The notes: a model not told the origin generated them from the letters alone. DNA of 63,210 nucleotides from Candidatus Moraniibacteriota bacterium (GCA_023133275.1 JAGLWU010000020.1:1-63210), one strand, 5' to 3'. Counted from the first letter of the stretch, positions 2,543 through 41,795 are shown. A program made the numbers and translations.

Positions 2543-2568
2543 TTAATTTAAATTTTAACTAAAAAATT

Positions 2569-8576: not shown

Positions 8577-8626
8577 ATTTTTTAAATAAGTGATTAATAG
8601 AATAAATTATAACATAAATTTGATTT

Positions 8627-9565: not shown

Positions 9566-9569
9566 ATTT

Positions 9570-10508: not shown

Positions 10509-10549
10509 ATATATTTTTATTATTAAAATTTGAAAATATTTGTAAAAGT

Positions 10550-11959: not shown

Positions 11960-12072
11960 AATATTTAGATTTTTAGTATTTTAGACAATTAGACTCGTAG
12001 AAACGTAGTACTGCTACGTTTCAAATTTCAATTAGAAATTTATAAATTAATATTTTTCAAAAAGTACAGCCA

Positions 12073-12241
12073 GTCATTCTGAACGGATTTATTTTTTCTA
12101 ACAAAAAAATAAAGGAATAAAAAATCTCAATAAGTTTTTCTGATATTTTCACTTTACTAATTTCAAAGTTTAATATTTTTCCGCAGGGGATTCTTCACTT
12201 CATAAATTTTTTTACAAAAAATTTATTATGTTCAGAATGAC
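12073..12241. repeat. 169-bp palindromic (MITE-like) unit with inverted ends GTCATTCTGAACGG / (C)ATGTTCAGAATGAC
   Basis: The ends and inner segments (AAAGGAATAAAAAATCTC vs GGGGATTCTTCACTTC) are mutually complementary. A second full copy lies at 32442-32604, with half copies at 20436-20492 and 46922-46984. Confidence 0.75.
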
Positions 12242-12291
12242 AGTAAACTTTCAGAATTTCAACAAGGGGTCATGACCCCTTGTTTCAGAAA

Positions 12292-12309
12292 AGCCCGTGC
12301 GGCGAGCAC
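12292..12309 (+). repeat. GC-box repeat, exact
   Basis: AGCCCGTGCGGCGAGCAC, preceded by the 24-bp perfect palindrome at 12261-12284. Confidence 0.9.
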
Positions 12310-12447
12310 AAAAAAATTTTTTGAAAATAATTTAAAACTTAAAACTTAATTAAACTTTTAGATTCAATCTACAAAATTAAACTAATTAATTATTTAAAAA
12401 TTAAAATTTCAATCAAAATTCAAAATTTGTAATTCAAAATTTTCAAA

Positions 12448-13152
12448 CTATTCTTTTATTCTTTTCAACACTTCGCGAAAACGAAAATATTCATTTAATC
12501 TTAATCCAGTCCATTTACCAATAAAAACGTTAAAAGGCAAAATTAGTAAAATTACGAATGGATAAGCTAATACAAAACTTATAATATTGTGTCCAACAGA
12601 TGTTCGGTAGCTCATTAAAATGTATCCGACCAAAGCAATAATCAAAGTTTCTAAAGCTAAAATTGAAGCGGTTTTTGTTCCTTTTTCGATTTGAACGGCG
12701 ACAAATTTTTCTACCAAAGTGATTATGATTAAAATAGCAAATATTGAAGCGGAGGCAAATCCTGTGCGATTGAAATGTCCTGCGACGGCCAATAAAATAA
12801 GTGTGGTGAATGATACGACGGTTATCATTATTGCTACTCTAGGTAAATAAAGAAGACGCATTTTTTTCAAAACATAACGCATGAGCATTCCTGTTGCTAA
12901 AACAATTACATAAATTGCAATGGCATATTTCAAATCCCAAAAATTATTTTCCGCAATTTTAATAAAAGAGACAGTAATAATTGTTGGCGTGTAAACTCCA
13001 AAAGCTTTAATTCCAAGGACTTGTCTTAAAATAACCACGATAGTAGCAATTAATGGAAAGAGAAGTAATAAAATAACAGTGTTTAAAGGTACTCCTGATT
13101 GGATAAAAAAAAGATTGATCCAAGGATGGATGTTAGTGAATAAATTTTCCAT
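12448..13152 (-). CDS. 7-TM membrane protein (7TM_transglut / CapC-PgsC-like)
   Basis: Seven hydrophobic helices. LGIKAFGVYTPTIITVSF resembles the G..P.G..VPG helix of PgsC/CapC-type proteins. The C-terminal GKWTGLRLNEYFRFREVL tail is typical of the 7TM module that accompanies RimK-related ligases. Confidence 0.55.
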   Translation of the reverse strand: MENLFTNIHPWINLFFIQSGVPLNTVILLLLFPLIATIVVILRQVLGIKAFGVYTPTIITVSFIKIAENNFWDLKYAIAIYVIVLATGMLMRYVLKKMRLLYLPRVAIMITVVSFTTLILLAVAGHFNRTGFASASIFAILIIITLVEKFVAVQIEKGTKTASILALETLIIALVGYILMSYRTSVGHNIISFVLAYPFVILLILPFNVFIGKWTGLRLNEYFRFREVLKRIKE

Positions 13153-13163
13153 TGTGAATTTTT

Positions 13164-13673
13164 TTATGAATTAAGTTTCTGTTGGTAAAGACGTGAATTT
13201 AAATGACAAAAGCTAACCGCTAAAGCGTCGGCAGCATCATCTGGTTTCGGAATCTCTTTTAATTTTAGCACATTTTTTATCATTAATTGCATTTGTTTTT
13301 TGTCAGCTCTTCCGTATCCGGTCAAGGCTTGTTTTATTTGTAGAGGTGTATATTCGCCGATTGGTAATTTTTTGTTTTTGCAAATATATAATATTACACC
13401 TCGAGCTTGAGCAACTGTGATGACTGTTTTTTTGTTTTTAAAATAAAATAATTCTTCAACAGCAACTTCATCAGGTTTGTATTCTTTGATTAATTCTTTT
13501 AAATCTTCGCCGATTAAATTTAAACGTTCAGGATTTGGTAAATCAGCAGAAGTGGTTATTTGTCCGTAATCGATTGTTTTTATTTCTTTAGAATTGTCTT
13601 GTTGTTCTAAAATTCCCCAACCAACGATTGCGGTCCCTGGGTCAATTCCAAGAACTTTGATTTTGTTTTTCAT
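13164..13673 (-). CDS. ruvC: crossover junction endodeoxyribonuclease RuvC
   Basis: VLGIDPGTAIVGWGIL, VAVEELFYFKN, ADKKQMQ, DDAADALAVSFCH. Confidence 0.9.
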   Translation of the reverse strand: MKNKIKVLGIDPGTAIVGWGILEQQDNSKEIKTIDYGQITTSADLPNPERLNLIGEDLKELIKEYKPDEVAVEELFYFKNKKTVITVAQARGVILYICKNKKLPIGEYTPLQIKQALTGYGRADKKQMQLMIKNVLKLKEIPKPDDAADALAVSFCHLNSRLYQQKLNS

Positions 13674-13692
13674 ATTTTCGAAAAATTAAATT

Positions 13693-13710
13693 GTGCTCGC
13701 CGCACGGGCT
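13693..13710 (-). repeat. GC-box repeat, exact (reverse orientation)
   Basis: GTGCTCGCCGCACGGGCT, 20 nt upstream of the ruvC start codon. Confidence 0.9.
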
Positions 13711-13714
13711 TTTT

Positions 13715-13734
13715 GGGTTTAAAATTTTAAACCC
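13715..13734. repeat. perfect 20-bp palindrome GGGTTTAAAATTTTAAACCC followed by CTACAA
   Basis: Same position relative to the GC box as GGGTTTGCCAGTGGCAAACCC at 41843-41863 and GGGTTTGCCAGTAGCAAACCC at 54595-54615. A reverse copy lies at 32644-32667. Confidence 0.85.
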
Positions 13735-14051
13735 CTACAAATTTTTAAATCCTCCAGTTTTATCATTCAGACATGTCATTCCGGAAAATTTTTTATTTTT
13801 GAAAAAAATCAAAAATTTATCCGGAATCTTAAACTTTAATATTTAAGAAAACATTAAGTACAATGTTCTTCCGAGATCCTTATAAAAAATGAAATAATTT
13901 TTCAGGATGACAAGACAGAGAGGATCTGCACTCAGCTTGATTGGGTGATGACACATAATAGATTTGTGATAATTTTTATTTAGAACGACAAACTTTTCTC
14001 TTCTCTTTTTTCAAAAAGTCTAGTTTTCTAATCATCTAATGAGTTAATTAT

Positions 14052-14786
14052 CTATTCCACGTTGTCAAAAATTTCTTGAACATCATCTTGACTGTCGATG
14101 ATCTCAAAAAGTTTATTATACTCCATTTTTGTCTCTTTGTCAATGATAATCGGTTGTTTTGAAATATAATTTATTTTTAAATCTTTGACTTGAAAACCAT
14201 CTTTCTCAAGCTTTTTATAGACTTTTTGCACATTAATTTTTTCAGTAATTACAAGTATTTCTTTTTCACTGACTTTTTCTAAATCTTTTGCACCTGCTTC
14301 GATTATAGCTAATTCAATAAAATCAAAATTATCGGATTTTTCAGTTTCTAAAATGAATTGTCCGACTTCTTCGAACTGAAAACTGACGCTTCCGTTGGGT
14401 ACAAATTTTCCACTATTTTTTTTCAACAAAGATTTTATTTCGCTGACTGTTCTGTTTATATTATCAGTGGCACAGAGAATCATCATGGCGATCATTTCGT
14501 CGGTGTTGGTGGGGAAGTAGGCTTCATAAAATACTTCCTCGATTTTTCCTTCACCGCTTTGTCCCAATCCTCTTTTTATTGCTCGGTTGATGTTGTCTTT
14601 TGGCATATTGGCTTTTTTGGCTTGTTCGATGGCGATTTTTAAGGTGGAGTTTTTTTCGATGTCATTGCCTCCGCTTTGGACGGAAATTATGATTGCTTTG
14701 GCGAGGCGGGAGAATATTTTTGAGCGTTTGGAGTCTTGGGCTTCTTTGCGGTGTTTGATTCCTGACCATTTATTGTGTCCTGACAT
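14052..14786 (-). CDS. yebC: YebC/PmpR-family transcriptional regulator
   Basis: MSGHNKWSGIKHRKEAQDSKRSKIFSRLAKAI, NMPKDNINRAIKRG. Confidence 0.9.
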   Translation of the reverse strand: MSGHNKWSGIKHRKEAQDSKRSKIFSRLAKAIIISVQSGGNDIEKNSTLKIAIEQAKKANMPKDNINRAIKRGLGQSGEGKIEEVFYEAYFPTNTDEMIAMMILCATDNINRTVSEIKSLLKKNSGKFVPNGSVSFQFEEVGQFILETEKSDNFDFIELAIIEAGAKDLEKVSEKEILVITEKINVQKVYKKLEKDGFQVKDLKINYISKQPIIIDKETKMEYNKLFEIIDSQDDVQEIFDNVE

Positions 14787-14931
14787 GTGATTTATTTTTA
14801 AGTGATTATTTGTATTTATATTGTAGTGATTTTTTTTGATTTTGTCATCTTTTTAAATTAGTAACTGGTAATTAGTAACTTGTAACTGGCTTTTTAAGAA
14901 TTTGGTATTTTGAATTTAAAAAAATTTTCAC

Positions 14932-14960
14932 TTGACTTCTTTTTATTCTTCTGATAAATT
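14932..14960 (+). promoter_or_regulatory. sigma70-like promoter TTGACT-17-TAAATT
   Basis: TTGACT at 14932-14937, a 17-nt spacer, TAAATT at 14955-14960. Lies upstream of two small plus-strand ORFs. Confidence 0.4.
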
Positions 14961-15024
14961 GTAATTTCTCTACTAATGGAGCGGTGGAGAAATTTTGAAA
15001 TAGTTCCAAAGGAGAAAAATTGCC

Positions 15025-15147
15025 ATGAGTAAGGAAGAAAAAATAGAGCAATATAAGAAAGATCTAGTTGCTTTGTTTGAGAAAAACGGATATTGGCCAC
15101 AAAGACTGATGAATAATTACGGTTTATCTGTAGAAGAGATTCTGTAG
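15025..15147 (+). CDS. possible 40-aa small protein
   Basis: ATG preceded by AAAGGAGAAAAATTGCC (Shine-Dalgarno). Encodes MSKEEKIEQYKKDLVALFEKNGYWPQRLMNNYGLSVEEIL and is followed by the hairpin GGAGGTcggagcacCACCTCC. It is below the ORF-track size cutoff. Confidence 0.3.
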   Translation: MSKEEKIEQYKKDLVALFEKNGYWPQRLMNNYGLSVEEIL

Positions 15148-15267
15148 ATAAGGAAGGAGGTCGGAGCACCACCTCCTGAGGAAATGTCGTAGTTTTATAT
15201 AGTTTTTGGTGGAAGCTCGAAGTTTTGAACTTCTTACTTTATTAATTTAACTTTGAGGGTATAGAAA

Positions 15268-15510
15268 ATGGCAGTAGTAATTGTAAAAAATTTTGAAGGT
15301 ACTTGTCCATGCGGAGTGATGCTCGAAGTTCATTTAACCAGAAATGAAAAAGGCGACTTTACTAATGGTGATAATAGCTTAATTTGTAGCAGTTGTAGTA
15401 CTGTGTTTAAGGTTGTTATTACTAATCCCAGTGGTGATTTTGGTGTTAAAAACATGAAGTGTACTGTTAGTAGGACGGTAACGTTGAATAAACCACTGAT
15501 CCAAGGTTAA
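15268..15510 (+). CDS. small zinc-ribbon-like protein (80 aa)
   Basis: CPCG ... CSSC cysteine pairs, with GAGGG 8 nt upstream of the ATG. Confidence 0.4.
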   Translation: MAVVIVKNFEGTCPCGVMLEVHLTRNEKGDFTNGDNSLICSSCSTVFKVVITNPSGDFGVKNMKCTVSRTVTLNKPLIQG

Positions 15511-15562
15511 TATATTTAGTGGGAACTTATATTGCATTGTGAGAACTCGCTTTATTTTTTAT

Positions 15563-18289
15563 TTAAACAAATTTTACAATTCCAAAATCAATTTTAGTAA
15601 AAGTAAAATTTCTATTTTCTATAAATATAAAAGCGAGAGCTTTATTTTTAAACCAAGCTAAATAATTTTCTTTAAAAACATTAGCTAAAGTATTTTTAAT
15701 ATTTTCAAAAGGCAAAAAATTTTTATTTAACAACAAATTAATCTTTTCCAAAAAATTACCAAACGAGTTTTTACTTTTTATAGAAATCTCTTTTTTATTA
15801 TCAATATTTTTATTTTTATTCACTAAATTCATAGCAACCGATTGCATAAATAATTCATCTTGAAAACCTTTTTCATTCGCCAAGGCTTGAGCAATTATTT
15901 TTTGCACTTCAGGATCATTCAAATCATTTTCACCGCCATTTAAAATCCATTGCCATTCGCTATTTATTTTTTCGTAAGATTCATCATTTTTAATCTTTTC
16001 TTTTTCGTAAGAAACTTTATCAATCACTTTTCCATCAGGTTGTCGCAACTCGATAAAACCTTTTTTGTTCGGCAGGGAAATGGCGGAATATTCTCGAGTG
16101 ATTTTTTCGCTTTTTCCTTTTCCTATTTTTAAACTTTTTTTGATTGGATGATTGGTTAATTTATCTTTTTTCGATCCAGTGGCAATGCTCCAGCCCTCCA
16201 AATTTATTTTTTCTTTTGATTTATTTTCAATAACTAAATATTCATTTCCGCTATCTTTTCCTTTTGGATTTGGAACGATTTTTATAATTTCAATTTTGTA
16301 TTTTGGATATTTTTTCACTTCAATGGTAAAATTTTTCATAACTTCTTCACTCCCGTCTTGAACATGCAAACTTCCGTGATAAATTCCAGTTTCTATATAT
16401 TTATGTTTAGTTTCGGCTTTGTAACTTTTTCGTCCATCGCCGAAATCCCAACGAATTTTCAATTCTTCGTCGTCAATGTCAAAAACTTCTACTTTAAAAT
16501 TGGCATAAGTATTTTTGTAACTATTTTCATCAACGGAAAACTTTTTGATTTCTGGTAAATTGTTAAATTTATTTTTTGCGTTCGGTGTTAAAAATTTGCT
16601 CCACCGCCAATTTTTTTCATCTAAATTAAAATTATAAGAAATATTTTCTCTGGCACTTTTGTAACTTATTTCTGATTTTATTTTTTGATTGGGGGCGGTT
16701 AAAGTTACGGTTTCGCCACCAGAATTATTTAAAGCGAAATCAAAAGTTTTTCGATAAATTGTGAAATATGAATTAGCTGAAATTTTTTGATTTTCTGTAA
16801 AAGTATAATTTCCAGTTTTTGAGGAATCTTTTATCATCCAGTTTTCTAAATTAATTTCAAAATTATTTGGATTATAAATTTCGATAAATTCATCAGTTTT
16901 TTCTTCGCCAATTGGATTGGGTAAAATTTCGGAAAGTTGTAAGTCAGGATGTTTTTTAGTCAAAGGATTTTCATTATTTTTTTCGTTCGGCGTTGGCTCG
17001 GCAGAATAATTTTTTGACTTATCAAAATTCATCGAGAAACTCTCAATTGGATTTTCGTAAGTAAAAATTGTTTCAATGTTCGGATTTGGTGTTTTTAAAT
17101 AAATTGTGTCAGTATCATTATTTAACGAAAAGGAAAAATCTTTTTTCTGGTATAAAATTAAATATTCAAAAGGTTTTATTTCGATATTTTCTAAAACTTT
17201 TTTTGTGGATGAATTGTCTTTTAAAATCCAACCAGTTAAATCTACGGTTTCATCGTTGGGATTATAGAGTTCGATAAATTCGTTTTCAGTGTCAGTTCCG
17301 TTTGGATTTGGTAAAACTTCATTGATAATTATTTTGGGATATTTTTTTGTAGTTGGGTTTTCTGTGTTTTTATCGTTTGGTGTTGGAGTTGCTTCGTACC
17401 AGTTGTTTTTATCGTAATTCCAAGAAATGCCTTTTGTTGAAGTCGTATAACTTTTTTCTAAGAATATTTTTTCATTTGGAGCGATTAAATAAACTGTTTC
17501 ACCGCCAGAATTATTTAAAGCAAAAGAAAAATCATCACCTTTTGAAAAAGCAATTTTTTTTCCAGATTTTATTTTTACATTATTGAATTTTAATTTACTC
17601 TTAGTTTCATCTTTTAAAATCCAATTTGTTAAATCAATTTCTTTATCTCCATAATTATAAAGTTCTATAAATTCAGAATCGCCATCATTCGGATTTGCTA
17701 AAATTTCATTAATTCTAATTTTAGTTTCAGAGTAATCTTTTTTTTCAGGATTGTCATTATTTTTTTCGTTCGGCGTTGGAGTTTCTTCGTACCAATTATT
17801 TTTATCATAATTCCAAGATTGACCGCTAGTAGCAGAAGTGTATTTAAATTGAGATATTATATCTTTATTATCATCGTCATGATTATAATATAAAATTATT
17901 TCAGCTCCTGAATTTATAAGATTAGAAGGGTTGATTAATATATATTTATCCTCAATTTCGAAATCATTTAAACTCCAAATATTTGAAGGGTTATCTTTTA
18001 ATAATTTTCTATAACTTAATTTTAAATTTGTTAAATCAATTTTACTTTCAATGTAAATCTCAATAAATTCATTTCCAGAATCTTTGCCGTCGGGATTTGG
18101 CAAAATTTCATTAATTCTAATTTTAGTTTCAGAATAATCAATTTCTTTTTCAGCAGAAACTTTTATCGAAAAATAATTTGTGTTAAATAAAAGCAAATAA
18201 AAAATAAAACAAAGCGAAAACATCCTTTTGAAAGAATGTTTTTTGAAATTTATATTTTTGTTTCTAGAATTATTTTTGCGTTTGACCAT
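15563..18289 (-). CDS. secreted protein with five lamin-tail domains (LTD) and a PKD domain
   Basis: An IRINEILPNP.G.D..NEFIE(I/L)YN....(I/V)DL..W.(I/L)KD unit recurs five times. PKD-like segment: IRWDFGDGRKSYKAETKHKYIETGIYHGSLHVQDGS. N-terminal signal/TM present. The start may instead be the internal Met (MFSLCFIF). Confidence 0.8.
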   Translation of the reverse strand: MVKRKNNSRNKNINFKKHSFKRMFSLCFIFYLLLFNTNYFSIKVSAEKEIDYSETKIRINEILPNPDGKDSGNEFIEIYIESKIDLTNLKLSYRKLLKDNPSNIWSLNDFEIEDKYILINPSNLINSGAEIILYYNHDDDNKDIISQFKYTSATSGQSWNYDKNNWYEETPTPNEKNNDNPEKKDYSETKIRINEILANPNDGDSEFIELYNYGDKEIDLTNWILKDETKSKLKFNNVKIKSGKKIAFSKGDDFSFALNNSGGETVYLIAPNEKIFLEKSYTTSTKGISWNYDKNNWYEATPTPNDKNTENPTTKKYPKIIINEVLPNPNGTDTENEFIELYNPNDETVDLTGWILKDNSSTKKVLENIEIKPFEYLILYQKKDFSFSLNNDTDTIYLKTPNPNIETIFTYENPIESFSMNFDKSKNYSAEPTPNEKNNENPLTKKHPDLQLSEILPNPIGEEKTDEFIEIYNPNNFEINLENWMIKDSSKTGNYTFTENQKISANSYFTIYRKTFDFALNNSGGETVTLTAPNQKIKSEISYKSARENISYNFNLDEKNWRWSKFLTPNAKNKFNNLPEIKKFSVDENSYKNTYANFKVEVFDIDDEELKIRWDFGDGRKSYKAETKHKYIETGIYHGSLHVQDGSEEVMKNFTIEVKKYPKYKIEIIKIVPNPKGKDSGNEYLVIENKSKEKINLEGWSIATGSKKDKLTNHPIKKSLKIGKGKSEKITREYSAISLPNKKGFIELRQPDGKVIDKVSYEKEKIKNDESYEKINSEWQWILNGGENDLNDPEVQKIIAQALANEKGFQDELFMQSVAMNLVNKNKNIDNKKEISIKSKNSFGNFLEKINLLLNKNFLPFENIKNTLANVFKENYLAWFKNKALAFIFIENRNFTFTKIDFGIVKFV

Positions 18290-18860
18290 TTTTAATATCT
18301 TCAGGATTGAATTTCTTTTTCTTGTGAAAAGTCTTACGTTGGCTTTTATGTTGCAAGGAAATTAATGTCGCTTTTATCGCATAAGGATTAGGAACAGAAC
18401 GAAACATGAAATTTGATTGCTGAGCGGCAGTTTGAATGTGGACATGTCCGTAATTCAAAATAGTAGGAATGAACCCACTAATATTAGTTGAAATATCTTG
18501 AATTTGCAAGAACCTTAACTCACTCACATGACGGGAAAATAAACCTTTTTGTTCAACATTAATTACTCGTTGATTGGTGATAATCCAAACATCTAAATAA
18601 TAGTCAAACCAAATTATAAAGCTGTATATCCAAATTATTAGCAACAATAAAGTTTGTGTAAAATAAAATAGGGTAATAGAATTTTCGTTAGTAAAATTGC
18701 TAAAAATATAAGGATTTAAAATTAAACCACCTAACATAATTATTAGCAAAATGATAATTGGAAAATATTGTTTTAAAATGTCAAACCAATGTCGATGAAA
18801 AACGTGAAGAACCTGTTCATTTTCATGTTGATTTGAGAAATAAAAGTCTAGAGGTTTCAT
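18270..18860 (-). CDS. bacterial PH-domain (bPH_2, YdbS/YdbT-like) membrane protein
   Basis: Two TM helices followed by YYLDVWIITNQRVINVEQKGLFSRHVSELRFLQIQDIS. Overlaps the LTD gene start by 20 nt. Confidence 0.7.
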   Translation of the reverse strand: MKPLDFYFSNQHENEQVLHVFHRHWFDILKQYFPIIILLIIMLGGLILNPYIFSNFTNENSITLFYFTQTLLLLIIWIYSFIIWFDYYLDVWIITNQRVINVEQKGLFSRHVSELRFLQIQDISTNISGFIPTILNYGHVHIQTAAQQSNFMFRSVPNPYAIKATLISLQHKSQRKTFHKKKKFNPEDIKNGQTQK

Positions 18861-18919
18861 AATTTTTTTAAATTTTTATAAAAATATTTTTTTATTTAAA
18901 TAAAAAGTTACATTTTTTA

Positions 18920-19144
18920 CTAATAATAAAGATTGGACGGCAAAAAGTTATTAAATGGAAGTTGAATGAAAAAGTAAACATTGGTAATTATTAAAGCGGT
19001 TGTGATGATGAAAAAAATGATTATCATTGGACTGGTTAGTCGGGGATTGATGGAATATTTTTTTAAATGGAAAGTGGCGAGGAATCCTACTGTTAGAATT
19101 CCTATGATGAAAAAGAAATGAATTATACTTAGAATTATTATCAT
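18920..19144 (-). CDS. small two-TM membrane protein
   Basis: 74 aa, entirely hydrophobic helices, located between ruvB and the bPH gene. Confidence 0.4.
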   Translation of the reverse strand: MIIILSIIHFFFIIGILTVGFLATFHLKKYSINPRLTSPMIIIFFIITTALIITNVYFFIQLPFNNFLPSNLYY

Positions 19145-19235
19145 TTTTTGCCTTTATTATTAAATTTTTATTAAGTTATTTTTCTTAATTTATTTTAAAC
19201 GTAGCGGTGCTACGTTTTTACAAATTTAAAATTGT

Positions 19236-20255
19236 TTACTTATTCAATTTCTTAATATGTTCATAACCCAATTCCGTAACAATCCTACCACGAGGCGAAC
19301 GAGTAATCAAACCCAATTGCATCAAAAACGGTTCATAAACATCCTCAATCGTTTGTACTTCCTCAGAAAGAGCATTGGCAATCGTCTGAATTCCAACTGG
19401 GCCACCTTTAAACTTTTCAATAATTAATTGTAAAAAAGCACGATCAGTAGACTCTAATCCCTTTTCATCAACATCTAACATATCTAAAGTTTTCTCAGCA
19501 ACAAAATCATCAATATTTTCATTATCATGAACTTCTGACCAATCTCTTGCTCTTTTCAAAAGTCGGTTGGCAATTCGAGGAGTTTGTCGGGCAGACCTTG
19601 CTAATTTTTGAGAACCTTCTGTAGTTATTTGACAATTTAAAATTGTCGCATTTCGAGTAATAATTTCTTGAATATTATCTTCCCCGTAAAATTCCAGTCG
19701 GTGAATTACTCCAAATCGATCTCGCAATGGTCCAGTCAGCGATCCCATTCTCGTTGTTGCTCCGATCAATGTAAATTTCGGCAAATCAATTTGTAAGGCT
19801 TGAGCACTCGGTCCTTTCCCTACCACTAAATCCAGTTTGTGATCTTCCATGGCAGGGTAGAGAACTTCTTCGACAGATTTATTCAAGCGATGAATTTCAT
19901 CAATAAAAAGAACGTCGCCGTCTTGCAAATTAGTTAAAATTGAACCTAAATCGCCAACTCGTTCAATCGCTGGACCAGAGGTAGTTTTTATATTCACATT
20001 CATTTCTTTGGCAATAATATTCGCCAAAGTTGTTTTTCCTAAACCGGGAGGTCCGTAAAGTAAGATGTGTTCTAAGGAATCACCTCTTTTTTTTGCAGCC
20101 CCGAGAAATATTCGTAATTGTTTTTTTATTTTTTCTTGTCCAACATATTCATCTAGTTTTTGTGGTCGTAAAGTTAATTCAAAAGGCAATTCTTTTGTTT
20201 CGGTGATTTTTTCTTTTTCGTTATTTACAGGTTTGTCGCTTTCTTTTTCGATCAT
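19236..20255 (-). CDS. ruvB: Holliday junction branch migration ATPase RuvB
   Basis: [22 protein letters not shown] (Walker A), LFIDEIHRL (Walker B), [15 protein letters not shown] place the start at the ATG at 20255. The ORF-track TTG at 20297 lies inside an intergenic repeat. Confidence 0.9.
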
Positions 20256-20375
20256 TTGATTAAATTTAGACGAGTAAATTGGTAGATATTTAGACAATTA
20301 GATTTGTAAAAATGTTGTATTGTAATGTATTTAGATTTATAAATCAAACTTTTTTTATTCTTTCAAAAAATAATA

Positions 20376-20946: not shown

Positions 20947-21828
20947 ATGAGAAATAGATTTGAGGGTAACAGTATGAGTGTGTCTGTTTCGCCACGAGAA
21001 GTTAAAAAAGAGATTGATGAGGGAATTGAGACTCATCAAGAGGGAGAACAATTAGACTATAATATTGAGGAAGAAGTGCCTGTTTTTGATAAAGACGGTA
21101 ATTTAGATGATTGGGAGTATTATAATTCTGAAGGTAATTGGGGCTTTATTGAAACAGAAGAAGGTTCTGTTACTAAGTCTATAGTTTTATTTGATAATTA
21201 CCAAGCTTCATTGGAGGAGTATAGTAAAATGATAGGCTCTTTGAGATCAATGAATAGAGGAAAGAGAAATCATCCAGATGTTGAAATATATAATGATCCC
21301 ATGAATCTTTATTTTAAATTAAAAGAAGAGGAAATAGATAGTATATGGGATGCAAAAATTAAACCAGTTAGTGAAAATCAAGAACAGCTAGATTTTTTGA
21401 AAAAATTAGATGATGAGGCTAAAAAAATATCTAAAGATATTTTTATTAATAGAGAGGGTTCAGATATTTATTTTGAAGGAATTGAATTAAATTCAGATGA
21501 TATTAATGATATAGTAAGTAGATTAAATGCTCCTAGAAAAATTGGGAGGAAAATGATTAAGTCTCCTATTGCTAGTGATGAGCATTTTCAAGAAAGACTT
21601 GAACTTGAACTTAGAAAATTTTTATATAAAATGTCTGTTGAAAAAAATCTTTTACCAGAAACTTCTGATAAAATGGAATACGTGTATGAAACAAGAAGTG
21701 GGTATGAATTTAGATTAAGCAATTCAAATCTTAATAAGATTGGTTTTGATGGGGGCGATGGTAGTAAATATTGTTATAGTATGTTTTTTAAGCCAGGTTT
21801 AGATAAAAGAAGAAATGAGAGTCAATGA
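20947..21828 (+). CDS. hypothetical acidic protein
   Basis: 293-aa ORF with no recognised motif. Confidence 0.5.
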   Translation: MRNRFEGNSMSVSVSPREVKKEIDEGIETHQEGEQLDYNIEEEVPVFDKDGNLDDWEYYNSEGNWGFIETEEGSVTKSIVLFDNYQASLEEYSKMIGSLRSMNRGKRNHPDVEIYNDPMNLYFKLKEEEIDSIWDAKIKPVSENQEQLDFLKKLDDEAKKISKDIFINREGSDIYFEGIELNSDDINDIVSRLNAPRKIGRKMIKSPIASDEHFQERLELELRKFLYKMSVEKNLLPETSDKMEYVYETRSGYEFRLSNSNLNKIGFDGGDGSKYCYSMFFKPGLDKRRNESQ

Positions 21829-21842
21829 TAATGTATGGATAA

Positions 21843-21875
21843 TAAAAACCACTTCTAAGTTGAGAAGTGGTTTTT
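21843..21875. terminator. bidirectional intrinsic terminator
   Basis: AAAAACCACTTCtaagttGAGAAGTGGTTTTTA between convergent genes. Confidence 0.7.
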
Positions 21876-21896
21876 ATTTGCAAATTTTCTGAAATA

Positions 21897-24800
21897 TTAC
21901 AAATCTGTAACTCTTTTAACTTCATCAAAAGTCGTAACACCTTCCAACGCCTTCAAAACACCATCCTGTTTTATCGTTAACATACCATTTTCAATCGCTT
22001 TCTTTTTAATTTCAGAAGCCAGTTCACCATGCGAAATCACTAAACGCAAATCATCGTCTATCACCAAAATTTCACTAATTACCGTTCTACTTTTATAACC
22101 AATTTCATTACATTTCTCACAACCAACCTTTTCGTATAAATAATTCATTTCAGGAATTGGAAAATCAATTTTTGGAGTAATATTTTCAATAATTTTTGAA
22201 ATAATATTTTTTTGTTCTTCTGTTATTTTTACTTTCTTTTTACAATCGCAAAGTTTACGCACCAATCTTTGAGCGACAAAAGCATTTACAGAAGTAGTAA
22301 TATCATCCGTACTAATTCCTAAATTTAACAATCTTTGAATTGCACCAATTGCATCATTCGTGTGAAGTGAAGAAATTAATAAATGTCCCGTCAAAGCAGC
22401 ATTTACAGCCGTTTCAGCCGTTTCATTGTCACGAATTTCACCAACCAACATTATATCGGGATCCTGACGAAGAAGTGAACGTAAAGCAGAAGAAAAAGTG
22501 TAGCCAGATTCCTGATCAATTTGAGTTTGCAAAATTCCATCCAACTGATATTCAATCGGATCTTCAATAGTTATAATTTTAACTTCAGGACTTTGAATTT
22601 CTTTTAACAGACTGTAAAGAGTGGTAGTTTTTCCAGAACCAGTTGGTCCAGTGTTCAAAATAATTCCATGAGGTTTTTTTACTTCTTTAATTATTTTATT
22701 TAAATTGTACGGACGAATTCCCAAGACATTAATATTTAATTCTACAGTTTCTCTATTCAACAAACGCAACACAACCGTTTCACCAAAGCCTCCAGCGATT
22801 ATAGAAACACGAACATCCATTTTAAAATCTTTCATTTCATTTTCCACTTCATAAAGAACTCGGAAGCGACTATCGGAAACGCCTTGTCGAACTGTAGTGG
22901 GAATATTACTCAATTCTTTTATTTTTCCAAGTAGCGGAGGATAATTAATTAAAGGTATTTCAGCTATATTTTGTAACACGCCATCAACTCTCATTCTGAT
23001 AAAAACTTTTTCTTCTTGTGGTTCAATGTGAATATCACTGGCTCTCAAAAATTTTCCGTAAGCAAAAATGAGAGGTAGCATATCTTGATCGTTGGCTTTA
23101 TTTATACTTTCATTAATAACATTTTTACCGTGAGAAAGCTCTTGCGACATTTTCTGTTTTTCAATATCGACGAAAACTCCACGAGAAAGAGTTTGAAACA
23201 TTAAATCATCGTAAAGACTTTTAATTAAATCACTTTCTGACGTAACTCTAAAAATTTCTTCCATTGAAGTAACGCCGTCAATTGCTTTTAATACACCATC
23301 TTGTGTCATAGTAACAAAGCCTTCCTCAATTGCCGTTTTCATAATTGCTGTTTCACTTTCCATATTTAAAATCAATTTTTCAATATTTTCGCTCATGGTG
23401 AGAACTTCAAAAATTCCAATCCGTCCTTTGTAGCCAGTTTGATTACATTTTTTACAACCTCTTGGTTTATAAAGATGGGAAACGGTTTTTGGGATTTTCA
23501 CTTTTGCTTTTGGAGAAACTAAAGTCAACATTTGCAATAAAGTTTCAATTGTTTCTTGAGCAGGTTCATATCTCTCTTTGCAACCACACAATTTTCGAAC
23601 TAATCTTTGTGCCATAAAAATATTGGTAGCGGCGGGAATTAAAGTTGGCTTAACTCCTAATTCTAAAAGTCGAGAAACAGTGGCTGGAGCATTATTAGTG
23701 TGTAAAGTTGATAAAACTAAATGTCCTGTCAAGGCAGCATTGATAGCAATGTTAGCCGTTTCATCATCACGAATTTCACCAACTAAAATAATATCAGGAT
23801 CTTGACGAACGATGGCACGTAAACCCTTGGCAAAAGTATAATTTTTATCTTTAGAGACTTCAGTTTGAGAAATTCCTTCAATCTCATATTCAATCGGATC
23901 TTCAATCGTAATTATTTTTGTTTTAGGAGTTTTGATATGATTTACTAAAGTGTAAAGAGTAGTAGTTTTACCAGAGCCAGTTGGTCCTGTCGTTAAAATC
24001 ATTCCAGTATTTTTACTAATATTATTTTGAACATCCTCCGCCGCTTTTCCAATCAAGCCTAATTCTGACATTTGAACATTGATACTTTCGTTATCTAAAA
24101 GACGCATCACAATTCCTTCAAATTTTTTCCCTGGAATACTACTGACTCTGACATCAATGGAACGAGTTTTATTAACGCTAAAAGAAAAGTGTCCATCTTG
24201 TGCTTCTCTTTTAATATTGATTTTCATTCCGCTCATTAATTTAATCCGAGAAAGAGCTAATTTATAAGTTTTGTGTGGAAAATTAACAATATCTTGTAAA
24301 ACACCATCAATTCTGTAACGTAATCGCACACCCTCTTTTTGTGGCTCAAGATGAATGTCGCTGGCATTCAATTTTACTGCCGCAGAAAAAAGAATATGTA
24401 AAAGCTCAGTGGTCGGCATTGAATCAATTTTATTTTTCAAATCCAACAGTTTTCCAATTCCTGTGTTAAAATTTTCTAACTCTTCGCCAGTCAACATTAA
24501 ACGCATCACGTCTATTGAATCGATAAAATAAGCCCCTCGATATTGTTTTAAGGCTTGTTCTAAAGATGATGGTGAAATTACATACAATCTAATTTCCCAA
24601 TTATTTGTTTCACTTAATTCATTTAGAAATTCTAAAGTATCGCTGTTCAACGGATCGGTTGTTCCTATTCTTATTAAATTTCCAGCTCGGAAAAAAATGA
24701 CTAGATTGTATTTTTCAGAAAGTTCTTGTTTTATTAAAGATACGTCATCACTATTTATTGGCAGTAGGTGTAAATCTGCATAACCCAAACTTAATTTTCT

Positions 24801-24917
24801 GGCTATTCGAGAGGCATATTCCTCAGATCCTTTTTCTTGAAGCATTTCTATTTCTCGTCGAGTTTCTTCTTCGTGGAGAGGTTGTGATTTTTGTGTTGTT
24901 TGGGTTACTTTGACCAT
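21897..24917 (-). CDS. pilB: tandem-duplicated type IV pilus / T2SS assembly ATPase (PilB/GspE x2 in one polypeptide)
   Basis: N-terminal T2SSE_N-like domain, then two full ATPase cores. Module 1: ASDIHLEP, GPTGSGKTTTLYTL, DPDIILVGEIRD, TGHLVLSTLHTN, CGC...CKKCNQTGYKGRIGIFE. Module 2: ASDIHIEP, GPTGSGKTTTLYSL, DPDIMLVGEIRD, TGHLLISSLHTN, CDC...CEKCNEIGYKSR. Confidence 0.85.
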   Translation of the reverse strand: MVKVTQTTQKSQPLHEEETRREIEMLQEKGSEEYASRIARKLSLGYADLHLLPINSDDVSLIKQELSEKYNLVIFFRAGNLIRIGTTDPLNSDTLEFLNELSETNNWEIRLYVISPSSLEQALKQYRGAYFIDSIDVMRLMLTGEELENFNTGIGKLLDLKNKIDSMPTTELLHILFSAAVKLNASDIHLEPQKEGVRLRYRIDGVLQDIVNFPHKTYKLALSRIKLMSGMKINIKREAQDGHFSFSVNKTRSIDVRVSSIPGKKFEGIVMRLLDNESINVQMSELGLIGKAAEDVQNNISKNTGMILTTGPTGSGKTTTLYTLVNHIKTPKTKIITIEDPIEYEIEGISQTEVSKDKNYTFAKGLRAIVRQDPDIILVGEIRDDETANIAINAALTGHLVLSTLHTNNAPATVSRLLELGVKPTLIPAATNIFMAQRLVRKLCGCKERYEPAQETIETLLQMLTLVSPKAKVKIPKTVSHLYKPRGCKKCNQTGYKGRIGIFEVLTMSENIEKLILNMESETAIMKTAIEEGFVTMTQDGVLKAIDGVTSMEEIFRVTSESDLIKSLYDDLMFQTLSRGVFVDIEKQKMSQELSHGKNVINESINKANDQDMLPLIFAYGKFLRASDIHIEPQEEKVFIRMRVDGVLQNIAEIPLINYPPLLGKIKELSNIPTTVRQGVSDSRFRVLYEVENEMKDFKMDVRVSIIAGGFGETVVLRLLNRETVELNINVLGIRPYNLNKIIKEVKKPHGIILNTGPTGSGKTTTLYSLLKEIQSPEVKIITIEDPIEYQLDGILQTQIDQESGYTFSSALRSLLRQDPDIMLVGEIRDNETAETAVNAALTGHLLISSLHTNDAIGAIQRLLNLGISTDDITTSVNAFVAQRLVRKLCDCKKKVKITEEQKNIISKIIENITPKIDFPIPEMNYLYEKVGCEKCNEIGYKSRTVISEILVIDDDLRLVISHGELASEIKKKAIENGMLTIKQDGVLKALEGVTTFDEVKRVTDL

Positions 24918-25070
24918 AGATTTTTTTTGTTTATTTTTCTATAGTGTAACAGTTTTTTAAATTAAATAAAAGTAAAAGAGAGACTTAATGTTGCTTTGTA
25001 AATTTGGTTTGACTAAGTTTAAGTTTTAATTTAAAATATTATTTATAAGTTAATAATAAATAATACTTTT

Positions 25071-26198
25071 ATGAAAAATTTAGTTATAGAAAAAATAGCT
25101 ATTGCAGTTGGTATAATTTTTGTGCTTGTGATTATTGTAGTAATGTTTATTTTTAATAAAAAAGAAAAGAATGATATTCAAAAAGAGGTGGTTATTGATG
25201 AAATAGTAGATGTTGAGGAAAAAATAGTTGAAGAAGAAATAGCTGAATTTGAAGAGGTTGAGAATGAGAAAGAATCTATTGAAGAGTTTAAAGAAGCTCA
25301 AAATTTAAGTAGTTTAGAAAAAGATATTGAGCCTAAAGAATTTAAGGAGTCTGAAAAATCTGAAGAAAAGGAAGAAAAAACAATAGATAATACTTTAAGT
25401 AAAAAAGATACAATTAAAAAGAAAAAAAGTAAGAAAATTTTGTTTCTGAAAGATCACTGTTATTTTTTTAATAACATCAATAACTGTACAGAATATCATA
25501 CAAATATTTATTCTTTTGATCCTGAGGATAATAATATAGAAAAAATATATGAATTGGGAGAAACGGGGAATGGTTATTTATTTGAGCCAGAGAATAAAAA
25601 GGTATTTTATAGAACTAAAAGTGGAGGGGTGGCAGAATTGAGTTTAGTTGATAAAAGTTGGCGATTAATAATAAAAAGAGATTATAATGGTAAAGTCACT
25701 GATATGTTAATCGAGGATGGTAAGCTTTTCTATTTATCGGGAAGCTGTGGAGAAAATGTGAAATCTGATTGTATTTTGCAATATATTGACATGTCTACTG
25801 GCTTCAATAAATTTATTGCTAGTGATATTAAAAGTGAAGAGCTAAATCCTAGTTTAACTGGTATTGTTACTTTAGGAAGTTATGATAAATCTAAAAAGTC
25901 TTTGTATTTTCTAAATAGTATGGGTAAAAAAGGTATTATTGATGGCAGTTATGGTAGTTTATATAAAATAAATATTGAAAATGGTATTGTTGAAGTGGTA
26001 GGTAGAACTGGTGATGATGGATATTATGAATCGATTGGGAAACATTATTCAATGGAGCTGAATGATAATCGTGAATATTGTTATGATAAATTAGGCTTAG
26101 TAGTTGATTTAGGAGAAATAGCTAAAATTAGTTCAAGAGGAAGTAATGAAGGTCCGCATACTATATACACTCTTTTAGGGTGTGTTAATGATATTTAA
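25071..26198 (+). CDS. hypothetical membrane-anchored protein with acidic linker
   Basis: N-terminal TM helix, a Glu/Lys-rich segment, then a roughly 250-aa globular region. No motif recognised. Confidence 0.5.
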   Translation: MKNLVIEKIAIAVGIIFVLVIIVVMFIFNKKEKNDIQKEVVIDEIVDVEEKIVEEEIAEFEEVENEKESIEEFKEAQNLSSLEKDIEPKEFKESEKSEEKEEKTIDNTLSKKDTIKKKKSKKILFLKDHCYFFNNINNCTEYHTNIYSFDPEDNNIEKIYELGETGNGYLFEPENKKVFYRTKSGGVAELSLVDKSWRLIIKRDYNGKVTDMLIEDGKLFYLSGSCGENVKSDCILQYIDMSTGFNKFIASDIKSEELNPSLTGIVTLGSYDKSKKSLYFLNSMGKKGIIDGSYGSLYKINIENGIVEVVGRTGDDGYYESIGKHYSMELNDNREYCYDKLGLVVDLGEIAKISSRGSNEGPHTIYTLLGCVNDI

Positions 26199-37041: not shown

Positions 37042-37046
37042 ATTTT

Positions 37047-40601: not shown

Positions 40602-41795
40602 TTAAATATTTTCTTTAATTTTTTGTTGGACAAGATTGTAAGCATTTTTTCTAGCTTTAGTTTCCAAGGTAATTTTATAAATCCCTTCAGAAATCGGTTC
40701 ACCAAATTCCTTTTCCGAAAGTTCACCGATCTTTTCTGCATCAATAATTGCAGTATAATTATTTTTTTCATCTTCATAAAGAATAATGTAAATCTTTCCG
40801 TCAGAATAATTTTGCTTAATTTTTTTCAAAACAGTGTAAAGATCATTTGTTTGAGCGTCTGTTATTTCAATTTCTTTTTTACTTAAAATAGTCCAAATTA
40901 AATCATTTTTTTCATCATTATTCAAATTTGCCATTGCTTTGCCCCACAATTTTATCAAAGAAAGTGGTTGAGTTTTATAAAGATGTTGAACGATGTTTTG
41001 TTGGTCAGCTCCTTTTTCGATTAAATAACTCGCCAAATTCATGGAGTTAGGCGTTGTGTTTTGTTTTTGGAAGCTGTGAGTCGCACTGATAATTCCTGTC
41101 AACAAACAATCAGCACAATCTTTTGAAATACTTTCTTTGTCGACTGATTGAAATAATTCTCCGACTATTTCGGAGATTGAGGAGGCGGTTATTTTTACAA
41201 TATTTAATTGTCCAAATTGATTATTTTCATTTTTGTTGTCAATGTTGATTACAGGCATTTCGTAAAATAAATCGGGAACTTCATCATGGATTTTTCCAGC
41301 AGATTCTCGTTCGGTCATTCCCAAAGTTATAATTAAATTGTAGGGAAATTTTGCGGGCATGAAAGAAAAATCTCGTGAGTCAACCATTCCTTGTTCGGGC
41401 GTGATGTAAATGCGAAATTCGTCTTCAAGCCGTTCAGTTCTTGTTTTGAGAATATTGTTATATTTTGTTTTAAAACTTAAAATTAAATCTCGAGAGCCGG
41501 TGAGTGAATGGGTAATATTGGTGTTTTTGGGCATTTCGAGAAAATTGATGGATTTCTGATTTTCTTGCGGATCGATGTAGGCGAGGGTAGTTTGGATATT
41601 TTTTTGATCACAAAAGTGAGATAAGCCCAGTCCGGAGCTCAAAGTGTCGTAGTTTGGGTTTTCGGGTAGGATGATTAAAACATGAGTGCTTTTTAGTAAT
41701 AATTTTGTGAATTGTGTGGTAGTATTTTGATTCATTGAGTCTTTTATAATAATGGGATGATAGGTAATGGTATCATTGGAAATTTTTTGTGTCAA
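40602..41795 (-). CDS. DHH/DHHA1-like protein with degenerate catalytic motifs
   Basis: Architecture and length resemble NrnA. However, motif I reads PNYDTLSS (first Asp lost), the DHH position reads IDNK, and there is no GGGH in the C-terminal domain. Confidence 0.45.
   Translation of the reverse strand: MTQKISNDTITYHPIIIKDSMNQNTTTQFTKLLLKSTHVLIILPENPNYDTLSSGLGLSHFCDQKNIQTTLAYIDPQENQKSINFLEMPKNTNITHSLTGSRDLILSFKTKYNNILKTRTERLEDEFRIYITPEQGMVDSRDFSFMPAKFPYNLIITLGMTERESAGKIHDEVPDLFYEMPVINIDNKNENNQFGQLNIVKITASSISEIVGELFQSVDKESISKDCADCLLTGIISATHSFQKQNTTPNSMNLASYLIEKGADQQNIVQHLYKTQPLSLIKLWGKAMANLNNDEKNDLIWTILSKKEIEITDAQTNDLYTVLKKIKQNYSDGKIYIILYEDEKNNYTAIIDAEKIGELSEKEFGEPISEGIYKITLETKARKNAYNLVQQKIKENI

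Follow-up and report, generated by a model that had tools for sequence, protein, structure and literature searches.

The locus described here raises the question of how a ring-shaped motor is built when each of its chains carries two motor cores. To our knowledge, every mechanistic model of the motors of type IV pili, type II secretion and archaella takes the ring to consist of six identical chains. These models disagree on whether the motor has twofold or threefold symmetry and on the number of platform chains that it drives. The chain in question, a PilB-type ATPase, is encoded in a 63,210-nucleotide stretch of DNA, referred to below as the window, from a Candidatus Moranbacteria (Parcubacteria, CPR/Patescibacteria) genome of a cold-seep metagenome.

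The initial annotation had described a 1006-residue ORF at 21897-24917, giving no strand, with one N-terminal domain followed by two full ATPase cores. The ORF list and the translation place it on the minus strand, where 21897..24917 is a single unbroken frame of 1006 codons and a stop; the plus-strand frame over the same interval is ridden with stops. The N-terminus, MVKV, is common to its homologues. The domain count stands, with one MshEN match and two T2SSE (PF00437) stretches in Pfam, the latter scoring 731.4 bits (cut-off 24.9). The two cores, residues about 169-559 and 610-1006, are 45% identical over 394 aligned residues (E = 1e-119). All of the motifs that had been listed are found twice: ASDIH at residues 185 and 626, GPTGSGKT at 311 and 757, DPD at 373 and 819, TGH at 397 and 843, the cysteine motifs CGC/CKKC at 444/488 and CDC/CEKC at 890/933, and GYKGR at 495 with its counterpart GYKSR at 940. 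The DPDI-type motif had been misnamed as a combined Walker B and Asp box; the atypical Walker B, which contains the catalytic Glu, is DPDIILVGEIRD, and the Asp box reads IITIEDPIEY.

The chain begins with a single N1D (MshEN) domain at residues 43-128 (24534..24791; this and all following segments of the chain are on the minus strand), with a PF05157 score of 32.4 bits (cut-off 23.1) and AF2 pLDDT of 84-92. A helical connector, residues 129-168 (24414..24533), leads to the first N2D, with AF2 helices at 131-141, 145-152 and 156-166 and pLDDT of 55-73. The module 1 N2D, residues 169-285 (24063..24413), has α1 at 169-182, β1-β3 at 185-213, α2 at 215-229 and β4-β6 at 240-275 in the AF2 model. It is followed by the module 1 CTD, residues 286-559 (23241..24062), which is defined by its motifs and by a Foldseek match to 5tsh_C. 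The inter-module linker, residues 560-609 (23091..23240), has a column identity of 0.57. In the AF2 model, residues 562-577 form a low-confidence helix (pLDDT 53 and 42 over residues 561-580), and the helices at 585-607, just ahead of the second N2D, are structured (pLDDT 75-87). The module 2 N2D, residues 610-735 (22713..23090), includes α1 at 610-623, α2 at 656-669 and β4 at 680-689, and the module 2 CTD, residues 736-1006 (21900..22712), again defined by its motifs and by its PilB/GspE-class scores, completes the chain.

A chain of this kind could result if a frameshift, or an error of sequencing or assembly, had merged two neighbouring pilB genes. Logan contigs do break within the gene, at 22546-22580 and 23885-23918, and some short tracts are almost the same in the DNA of both modules (longest exact run 21 nt). 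The breaks, however, occur only at the Asp-box stretches, which are near-identical between the two modules, and contigs from four independent sequencing runs (X1-X4) span the linker (nt 23091-23240) without a single indel. The same fusion is present in 189 of the 191 cluster representatives (90% identity) that were retrieved from NCBI, JGI, ENA and Logan; these 189 are found at 38-87% identity, are 903-1067 residues long and retain one ORF of about 1005 residues. Within the linker itself, Y569, Q575 and L577 are each kept in at least 90% of the aligned tandem proteins. Given the linker-spanning contigs and the tandem homologues, an artefact is hardly conceivable and is rejected.

Most of the tandem representatives come from Candidatus Moranbacteria/Parcubacteria and, where a source is named, it is Moranbacteria, Parcubacteria or Patescibacteria. 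Of 14,889 PilB-like matches (E < 1e-30) in a 50%-identity clustered library, the best 150 include about 14 representatives with the tandem layout. The tandem PilB is a real and conserved protein, a single chain in which one N1D is followed by two complete cores of the PilB class, and its architecture is under purifying selection. A full-text literature search over open-access papers and preprints, including reviews and surveys, returned no account of a PilB or GspE of the tandem type, and the protein has apparently not been described so far.

Both modules retain the residues expected of a working ATPase. In the alignment of 88 tandem proteins, which extends to 38% identity, the Walker A Lys (K317 in module 1, K763 in module 2), the second of the Asp-box Glu residues E339/E343 and E785/E789, the catalytic Glu (E381/E827), a Thr (T397/T843), both His of the His box (H399 and H406/H845 and H852) and both Arg fingers of the N2D (R257 and R272/R703 and R718) are invariant. 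In module 1, E339 and the four Cys at 444, 446, 488 and 491 do not vary either. Residue roles follow McCallum 2017, and R257 and R272 were mapped by alignment to R271 and R286 of Geobacter PilB. The acidic residues of the pore loop are also retained (D384/E386 and D830/E832), D830 being invariant and E832 kept in at least 90%. Each CTD has a tetracysteine, a Zn-binding motif (C444/C446/C488/C491 and C890/C892/C933/C936); its first pair is CxC in the window protein and CxC or CxxC in relatives.

One module might have degenerated to a regulatory role, giving alternating active and inactive sites as in the α3β3 ring of F1. The mean column identity of module 2 is slightly below that of module 1 (0.75 and 0.78), and isolated cases of decay occur in distant tandems: module 1 of P0136 reads GPTGSGTT and has a degenerate Asp box, module 2 of P0126 is without its cysteines, and the RxRxDG motif of module 2 is degenerate in P0133. 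Across the window protein and the 88 aligned family members, by contrast, both modules have invariant catalytic residues; the loss of such residues from one module, which the initial annotation had named as an outcome that would undo its reading, is seen in neither. A pseudo-ATPase module is very improbable and is rejected for the window family by this invariance. From the same conservation we infer that both cores hydrolyse ATP.

CPR genomes carry both PilB and PilT (PMC6744442), and a fusion of an extension motor with a retraction motor is therefore conceivable. Taken alone, module 1 scores 443-452 bits with the models for PilB and GspE and 199 bits with PilT. Module 2 scores 406 bits with TIGR02533, 384 bits with TIGR02538 and 163 bits with PilT, and its best PDB matches are PilB and GspE at E of about 1e-85, with PilT at 1e-29. 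By sequence, both modules are of the PilB/GspE class and not of the PilT class, which leaves a PilB-PilT fusion with next to no probability, and it is rejected. The whole protein reaches 849.9 with TIGR02538 (cut-off 675.65) and 859.5 with TIGR02533 (cut-off 630.25), scores that sum the two cores; a single core is below the cut-off of either model.

The absence of adjoining pilC, pilM, pilN, pilO and pilin genes, reported in the initial annotation, extends to the whole 63-kb window in Pfam and prepilin-motif scans, and Pfam scans found no pilD or pilT there. The flanks of about 5-20 kb around related loci (L001-L008, L010, L011, L014-L017) also contain no T4P partner gene, save in L006, where a prepilin-like ORF of 48 residues separates the tandem gene from ruvB. 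A metagenome scan for tandems beside T4P genes, which used generic search patterns, gave one tandem among 80 loci, and that one is without T4P neighbours. Since no partner gene is near, the tie to a pilus machine is one of homology only. T4P parts are widespread in CPR (PMC6744442), and the pilus served by the tandem PilB would be encoded elsewhere in the genome.

The neighbours had been called orphans. This is correct for the two flanking genes (20947-21828 and 25071-26198, both on the plus strand), which have no Pfam or NCBIfam match, but not for the wider neighbourhood, which is conserved in relatives (ruvB, a bPH protein, an LTD/PKD protein, yebC and ruvC) and whose ruvB/ruvC/DHH linkage had been missed. 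The downstream neighbour ruvB (19236..20297, minus strand; Pfam RuvB_N, AAA_lid_4 and RuvB_C) is syntenic with pilB in L001-L008, L010, L011 and L015. In the same conserved co-directional gene string is ruvC (13164..13673, minus strand; NF000711, 228.6 bits), which in L016 starts 6 nt past the tandem gene. A DHH-family (NrnA-like) phosphoesterase gene, displaced in the window to 40602..41795 on the minus strand (PF01368 and a weak NrnA match), is directly upstream of pilB in L002-L005, L007, L010 and L015 and further upstream in L006. In L017, the tandem gene is directly followed by a translin-like gene and has upstream of it a gene for an LTD/PKD protein that includes an OB fold. The linkage of the tandem gene to ruvB, ruvC, yebC, DHH and TsaE is found across Parcubacteria lineages down to 40% identity.

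Just 3' of the stop codon there is a terminator hairpin (21841..21878, minus strand) with a 16-bp stem between an A-run and a T-run, a folding energy of -19.3 kcal/mol and z = -8.4; none of 200 shuffled sequences was equally stable. Because both runs flank the stem, it could terminate transcription both ways between the convergent genes. With its own terminator, and with an orphan on the opposite strand before ruvB, the tandem gene is not in one operon with ruvB. On its 5' side is a divergent, AT-rich intergenic region of 153 bp (24918..25070), the presumed promoter region, in which a consensus promoter scan gave no score above shuffled background. A search for transcript data returned no RNA runs.

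The linkage to ruvB, ruvC, yebC, DHH and the LTD/PKD surface protein weakly suggests a ComGA-like role in DNA uptake. It could also mean that the motor has been repurposed, serving no pilus machine and acting with its ruvB, ruvC, DHH and LTD/PKD/OB-fold neighbours in DNA handling or another envelope process; the persistence of the linkage, never beside T4P genes, the 6-nt spacing in L016 and the neighbours in L017 agree with this. Such repurposing is nevertheless improbable, as the N1D, tetracysteine, pore loops and N2D are conserved as in working PilB/GspE, the terminator and the opposite-strand orphan separate the gene from ruvB, the L006 locus has its prepilin-like ORF, and the tiny CPR genomes may keep synteny without functional coupling.

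The slot between the DHH gene and ruvB also bears on how the tandem arose. It holds a single-module PilB of 589 or 590 residues in L007 (10001-11770) and L008 (486-2258), and a three-module protein in L010, a singleton among the retrieved relatives. The single-module proteins are 50% identical to residues 1-574 of the tandem and fall inside the module 1 clade of a tree in which first and second modules separate into a clade each (bootstrap 81 and 54-65). Because one slot can hold a single-, double- or triple-module PilB, internal duplication of the resident gene is the probable source, and the sequences indicate that the motor core (N2D and CTD) was duplicated long ago within the gene. For the window gene, a recent duplication and gene conversion are both rejected, since the modules share only 57.5% nucleotide identity and no identical run beyond 21 nt. 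In P0131, the identity between modules is mosaic, 42-100% in 60-nt windows; this leaves conversion possible, and the independence of the P0131 and P0132 duplications (bootstrap values 100 and 98) is therefore not insisted on. P0136, which consists of two soluble T2SSF repeats and two ATPase cores, was considered as a 2:2 Rosetta-stone fusion. That reading is weakened because its relatives have T2SSF and one core and P0136 is the sole tandem version.

Since the duplication, the modules have diverged most in one place. The change from GYKGR to GYKSR, proposed in the initial annotation as a specialisation of module 2, is a one-off and is rejected as such a sign: it occurs in one of 189 tandem relatives, 139 of which have GYKGR in module 2, and at least 90% of the aligned tandem sequences have Gly at position 943. 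The inter-module divergence peaks at residues 229-243 of module 1 (24189..24233, minus strand) and 670-684 of module 2 (22866..22910, minus strand), with an index of 2.30 and a permutation p of 0.0125. In the AF2 secondary structure, this peak is on the end of α2, the α2-β4 loop and the start of β4 of the N2D. The module 2 segment has its own conserved signature (G679 in 86%, V680 in 90%, S683 in 84% and R684 in 100%), and the module 1 residues differ. As judged from the alignment, genuine module-specific divergence is thus chiefly in the N2D α2-β4 loop. In PulE, the N2D surface formed by α2 and this loop contacts both Cyto1 and Cyto2 of PulF in a 6:3 complex, an interface known from an AF2-multimer model of a Gram-negative type II secretion system and not from an experimental structure (PMC10790770). 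Divergence of the module 2 N2D would be equally expected if this surface faced another ring instead of PilC.

The AF2 monomer models leave the relative placement of the two modules undefined. The full-length chain has a pTM of 0.50, and a shorter construct, which runs from the module 1 CTD through the linker to the module 2 N2D and addresses whether the fusion turns a PilB packing unit into an intramolecular one, has a pTM of 0.64. A single-ring pseudo-hexamer of three chains is favoured as a plausible arrangement. In this arrangement, three chains would form one six-module PilB-like ring in which module 1 and module 2 alternate, with only three N1D anchors. Because the N2Ds have diverged most at the α2/α2-β4-loop surface, each tandem chain would pair with one chain of the trimeric PilC platform, module 1 meeting one PilC cytoplasmic domain and module 2 the other, and the ring would power pilin polymerisation in the manner of PilB. 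That the ruvB-linked PilB with its duplicated core forms a three-chain, six-module ring, paired with trimeric PilC and driving pilin polymerisation, is in our judgement evenly balanced between right and wrong; the narrower proposal of a covalent pseudo-hexamer of three chains, with each N2D specialised for one cytoplasmic domain of trimeric PilC, is tentative.

The natural tandem ring ATPases KaiC, p97/Cdc48, ClpB and EccC stack their rings. By this precedent, six tandem chains could form a module 1 ring above a module 2 ring, only the membrane-proximal ring meeting PilC and the second supplying power, regulation or a new partner. The retention of catalytic and ring-forming motifs in both modules is needed in this arrangement too, the distinct module 2 N2D signature fits a switch of partner, and AF2 gives no confident side-by-side packing. 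However, no stacked ring is found among the PilT/VirB11-like structures retrieved, the pore-loop acidic residues, thought to engage PilC, are kept in module 2, and it is not obvious what substrate a distal ring would act on. The numbers of module copies per chain seen, one, two and three, are all divisors of six, and the one- and three-module forms in the same slot are more simply explained if the total of modules per ring is conserved. A stacked double ring is accordingly thought unlikely. The expected masses differ, about 340 kDa for the three-chain ring and about 680 kDa for the six-chain stack.

The tandem PilB joins two non-identical cores in each chain of a natural motor, whereby the subunit order is fixed and the number of N-terminal anchors halved. 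Each of its sites is separately mutable, which in ClpX required engineering, and it is a single soluble protein (about 112 kDa) of which hundreds of variants occur naturally. If the three-chain pseudo-hexamer is correct, the motor would be threefold and not twofold, and would provide a natural test of the C2 and C3 rotary models for PilB, PilT and GspE, as well as evidence for a 6:3 stoichiometry of ATPase to platform. The one-, two- and three-module orthologues would then show that six modules per ring are conserved, and not six chains. The protein is also a hallmark of Moranbacteria, a large uncultivated lineage whose pili are believed to play a central part in scavenging DNA and attaching to hosts.

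Among known systems, Geobacter metallireducens PilB (PDB 5TSG/5TSH/6OLJ) and other type IVa assembly ATPases have the same N1D, N2D and CTD, and Geobacter PilB shares with the tandem PilB its catalytic motifs, Arg fingers, pore loop and Zn-cysteines (E = 1e-106). Each module superposes on it (5tsh_C) with a TM of 0.92 and an rmsd of 2.8 Å by Foldseek. The known PilBs are single-core chains of about 570 residues that form homohexamers, while the tandem PilB has N2D and CTD twice and N1D once. Their first Cys pair is CxxC and that of the window protein is CxC, and the tandem gene is not beside pilC or pilM. The single-module, ruvB-linked PilBs of Parcubacteria (L007, L008) occupy the same slot as the tandem with one core and no second module. 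Thermus thermophilus PilF (PDB 6F8L, a 913-residue chain), also a PDB match, is another long PilB-type ATPase that has grown by internal repetition. In PilF, the N-terminal GSPII/MshEN domain is the repeated part and the ATPase core is single; in the tandem PilB it is the core that is repeated, with a single N1D. KaiC, p97/Cdc48, ClpB, EccC and engineered linked ClpX resemble it in having at least two P-loop modules per chain, although they belong to unrelated or distantly related ATPase families. Covalent linkage in such tandem ring ATPases fixes subunit order and lets sites specialise; the natural ones stack their rings, whereas alternating modules in one ring are proposed for the tandem PilB. 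CPR bacteria are without secretin (PMC6744442). GspE/PulE is of the same ATPase family, and its model, TIGR02533, scores the tandem PilB as high as the PilB model does. Its platform protein, GspF/PulF, is itself internally duplicated, with two Cyto domains, and is trimeric (PMC10790770), and a trimer of the tandem ATPase would mirror the PulF trimer chain for chain.

The tandem gene is a single ORF of 1006 codons on the minus strand (21897-24917); the plus-strand frame is riddled with stop codons. Its 112-kDa product has one MshEN/N1D domain (residues 43-128) and matches T2SSE twice (731 bits) in Pfam, and the whole protein exceeds both the PilB and the GspE equivalog cut-offs of NCBIfam, in two stretches each. 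In self-comparison, residues 171-559 align with residues 612-1004 at 45% identity (E = 1e-119). Every motif listed in the initial annotation occurs twice at the expected spacing. Since both cores align and each motif is doubled, its observation of two PilB/GspE modules in one chain is confirmed. One motif name is corrected here: DPDIILVGEIRD is the atypical Walker B, which holds the catalytic Glu, and the name Asp box belongs to IITIEDPIEY.

The N1D (about 43-128) is followed by a helical connector (129-168), the N2D (169-285) and CTD (286-559) of module 1, an inter-module linker (560-609; nt 23091-23240) and the N2D (610-735) and CTD (736-1006) of module 2. The N2D of module 1 consists of α1 (169-182), β1-3 (185-213), α2 (215-229), a loop (230-239) and β4 (240-247). 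In the AF2 model, based on an 88-sequence alignment, the domains are predicted with confidence (mean pLDDT 83.2) and their global arrangement is uncertain (pTM 0.50). The linker is predicted to be poorly ordered only at residues 561-580 or so, and helices at 585-607 run into the second N2D. Each core superposes on Geobacter metallireducens PilB with a TM score of 0.92 and an rmsd of 2.8 Å. PDB chains cover at most about 36% of the model, and a sequence search found no tandem core among PDB sequences.

The window originates from a cold-seep metagenome, and the possibility had been raised that two adjacent pilB genes were joined by a frameshift or in assembly. In contigs of four separate runs that span the linker (nt 23091-23240), no indel or stop interrupts it, and 5.8 billion protein clusters, when searched, yielded more than 100 full-length relatives of about 1005 residues with 54-87% identity. 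Together these exclude an artefact, the relatives being the stronger evidence. Of 191 cluster representatives retrieved in two such searches, all but two (189) have two P-loops in 903-1067 residues. Named representatives belong to Candidatus Moranbacteria/Moraniibacteriota, Parcubacteria or Patescibacteria, and carry only generic labels such as 'GspE/PulE family protein'. Among named genomes, a Moraniibacteriota MAG (L001, 86% identity) is the closest, and all 23 kb of L001 are syntenic with the window. PilB-like proteins (E < 1e-30) number 14,889 in an exhaustive library with clustering at 50% identity; of the best 150 matches listed, only some 14 representatives are tandems, which argues that the architecture is rare across PilB-like proteins, yet diverse inside its own lineage.

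The run contigs, which are public de Bruijn assemblies, break inside the gene at two places only (22546-22580 and 23885-23918); these are the Asp-box stretches, where the DNA of the two modules is near-identical. Such genes may often be fragmented, and hence under-counted, in metagenome assemblies. Several 'single' matches (P0134, P0148, P0149 and P0155) are fragments of such tandem genes.

The gene order TsaE/DHH - pilB - ruvB - bPH - (LTD/PKD) - yebC - ruvC - 7TM_transglut - ATP-grasp is repeated in Parcubacteria loci down to 40% identity. The co-directional string from ruvB through bPH, an LTD/PKD surface protein, yebC, ruvC and 7TM_transglut to ATPgrasp_ST lies at 10550-20297 (-) in the window and recurs in loci L004, L007, L008, L015 and L016, an order still seen at about 40% protein identity. 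Upstream of pilB, relatives carry TsaE and a DHH (NrnA-like) gene; in the window the DHH gene has been relocated (40602-41795). A strong hairpin lies 3′ of the tandem gene's stop codon (-19.3 kcal/mol, z = -8.4), and an opposite-strand orphan gene sits between this end and ruvB; the tandem gene therefore looks monocistronic in this genome. The 375-residue product of a gene beside it has an N-terminal transmembrane-like segment and a counterpart of 49% identity in L001, from which a counterpart of the 293-residue product is absent. Five plus-strand ORFs of 293-704 residues (20947-21828, 25071-26198, 39141-40391, 42054-44168 and 44155-45573) have no Pfam or NCBIfam match. Four ATP-grasp genes (RimK-like, YheCD-like and ATPgrasp_ST) cluster beside a 7TM_transglut membrane protein gene (7722-13152, -) and may serve in peptide ligation or modification. 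This small genome also has genes of the defence type: an Eco47II-type restriction endonuclease with a C5 cytosine methylase (36292-38072, -) and, elsewhere, a RhuM-family gene adjoining a GmrSD-N/HNH nuclease (1496-3651, +). The MAGs containing L004, L005, L007 and L008 are titled Bdellovibrionales or Pseudobdellovibrionaceae; these labels look wrong, since in both gene content and synteny the MAGs agree with the Moranbacteria/Parcubacteria window.

No pilC, pilM, pilN, pilO, pilD, pilT or pilin gene is present in the 63-kb window, and the same genes are absent from the DNA flanking some ten related loci (about 5 to 20 kb), with the sole exception of a prepilin-like ORF of 48 residues in L006 (7024-7170, -). 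This ORF, located between tandem pilB and ruvB, has a class III signal (MNKRGGFTLIELM...) and would have a mature part of only about 28 residues, little more than the N-terminal helix of a pilin; no other pilin-like signal occurs in the loci examined. According to Méheust et al. 2019 (PMC6744442), T4P components and ComEC occur widely across the CPR, a secretin is lacking, and CPR bacteria can be expected to scavenge DNA. The recurrent neighbours of the tandem gene are recombination or nucleic-acid proteins (RuvB, RuvC, YebC, DHH phosphoesterase, PolA or PolX, a translin-like protein and LTD/PKD with an OB fold), and this synteny weakly suggests a ComGA-like role in DNA uptake.

The number of cores in the pilB slot varies. 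L007 and L008 have a single-core protein of 589 or 590 residues, and L010 (10001-14383) encodes P0005, a 1460-residue protein with three complete cores and Walker A motifs at 314, 761 and 1211; this triple form is a database singleton on one 77-kb JGI contig. In a neighbour-joining tree of modules (200 bootstraps), the module 1s form one clade that includes the L007 and L008 proteins (bootstrap 81). These pair with module 1 of the tandem P0121 (bootstrap 94), which suggests that they arose by secondary loss of module 2. The module 2s form a separate clade (bootstrap 54-65) that takes in modules 2 and 3 of P0005. The halves of the window gene have 57.5% nucleotide identity and share no long identical tract, which points to an old duplication. 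In P0131, P0132 and P0136, module 1 groups as sister to module 2 of the same protein (bootstrap 100, 98 and 96). Independent duplication could produce this pattern; since the P0132 gene also adjoins ruvB and the P0131 halves show mosaic identity, intragenic gene conversion is a live alternative for these two.

P0136 (L012:10001-13144 and L013:3275-6418) is the tandem version of a T2SSF + T2SSE family. The Walker A Lys of its module 1 is lost (GPTGSGTT), and the Asp box of that module is degenerate. Its relatives (P0358, P0362, P0373, P0375, P0384, P0386 and others; one labelled Candidatus Brocadiia) have about 610-640 residues and one T2SSE core, before which the usual N1D is replaced by an apparently soluble T2SSF (PilC-like) region.

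Catalytic residues were mapped by alignment to Geobacter PilB, with roles taken from McCallum et al. 2017 (PMC5424180), whose numbers equal the module 1 numbers of the window protein plus 14. The Walker A Lys (K317 in module 1, K763 in module 2), the Mg-coordinating Glu of the Asp box (E343, E789), the catalytic Glu (E381, E827), the His-box Thr and two His (T397, H399 and H406; T843, H845 and H852) and the Arg fingers (R257 and R272; R703 and R718) are invariant across 88 tandem proteins with identity down to 38%. The acidic pore-loop residues are also kept in both modules. Mean column identity is 0.78 in module 1 and 0.75 in module 2, and 0.57 in both the N-terminal region and the linker. 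Judged by these residues, both modules look catalytically competent. Module 2 alone scores 384-406 bits against PilB/GspE models vs 163 bits against PilT. A fusion of extension and retraction motors (PilB-PilT) is therefore ruled out, as is, for this tandem family, a dead regulatory copy.

Divergence between the two modules is genuine. At aligned positions, 103 are conserved and identical in both modules, six are fixed differences, 20 are conserved in module 1 only and 14 in module 2 only. The proposed specialisation of module 2 through GYKSR does not hold, as 139 relatives have GYKGR in module 2 and GYKSR is confined to the window protein. A divergence index, defined as within-module minus between-module similarity, has its maximum of 2.30 (permutation p 0.0125) at residues 229-243 of module 1 and 670-684 of module 2, with a second peak at 415-429/861-875. 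It averages 1.70 in α2 plus its loop, 0.65 in the N2D before α2 (residues 171-213) and 0.70 in the CTD core. According to the AF2 secondary structure, the first peak would comprise the end of α2, the α2-β4 loop and the start of β4. In an AlphaFold-Multimer model of PulE6:PulF3, the α2 helix and α2-β4 loop of the PulE N2D touch both cytoplasmic domains of each PulF chain (PMC10790770).

The tandem protein can be classed as a PilB-type motor whose core is present twice in one covalent chain. Its sequences have been public for years, and no description of the architecture was found in open-access papers and preprints; such a motor provides a natural handle on questions of symmetry and stoichiometry for the whole motor family. 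Each PilB chain clamps its nucleotide between its own N2D and CTD, whereas a rigid 'packing unit' joins the N2D of a chain to the CTD of its neighbour (PMC5424180). Three tandem chains could form one ring of six alternating modules, in which one packing unit per chain would become intramolecular. This single ring is favoured, at roughly an even chance of being correct, because the copy numbers found in the pilB slot (1, 2 and 3) are all divisors of six, because both modules retain the pore-loop residues, and because the divergence falls on the predicted platform-binding face. Six tandem chains might instead form two stacked rings, an arrangement that has precedent in other ATPase families and would account equally for the altered N2D surface of module 2; we consider it rather unlikely. 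Two AF2 runs favour neither arrangement over the other. With the single ring, divergence on the platform face would fit a chain-for-chain match between the tandem ATPase and trimeric PilC, which is itself an internal duplication.
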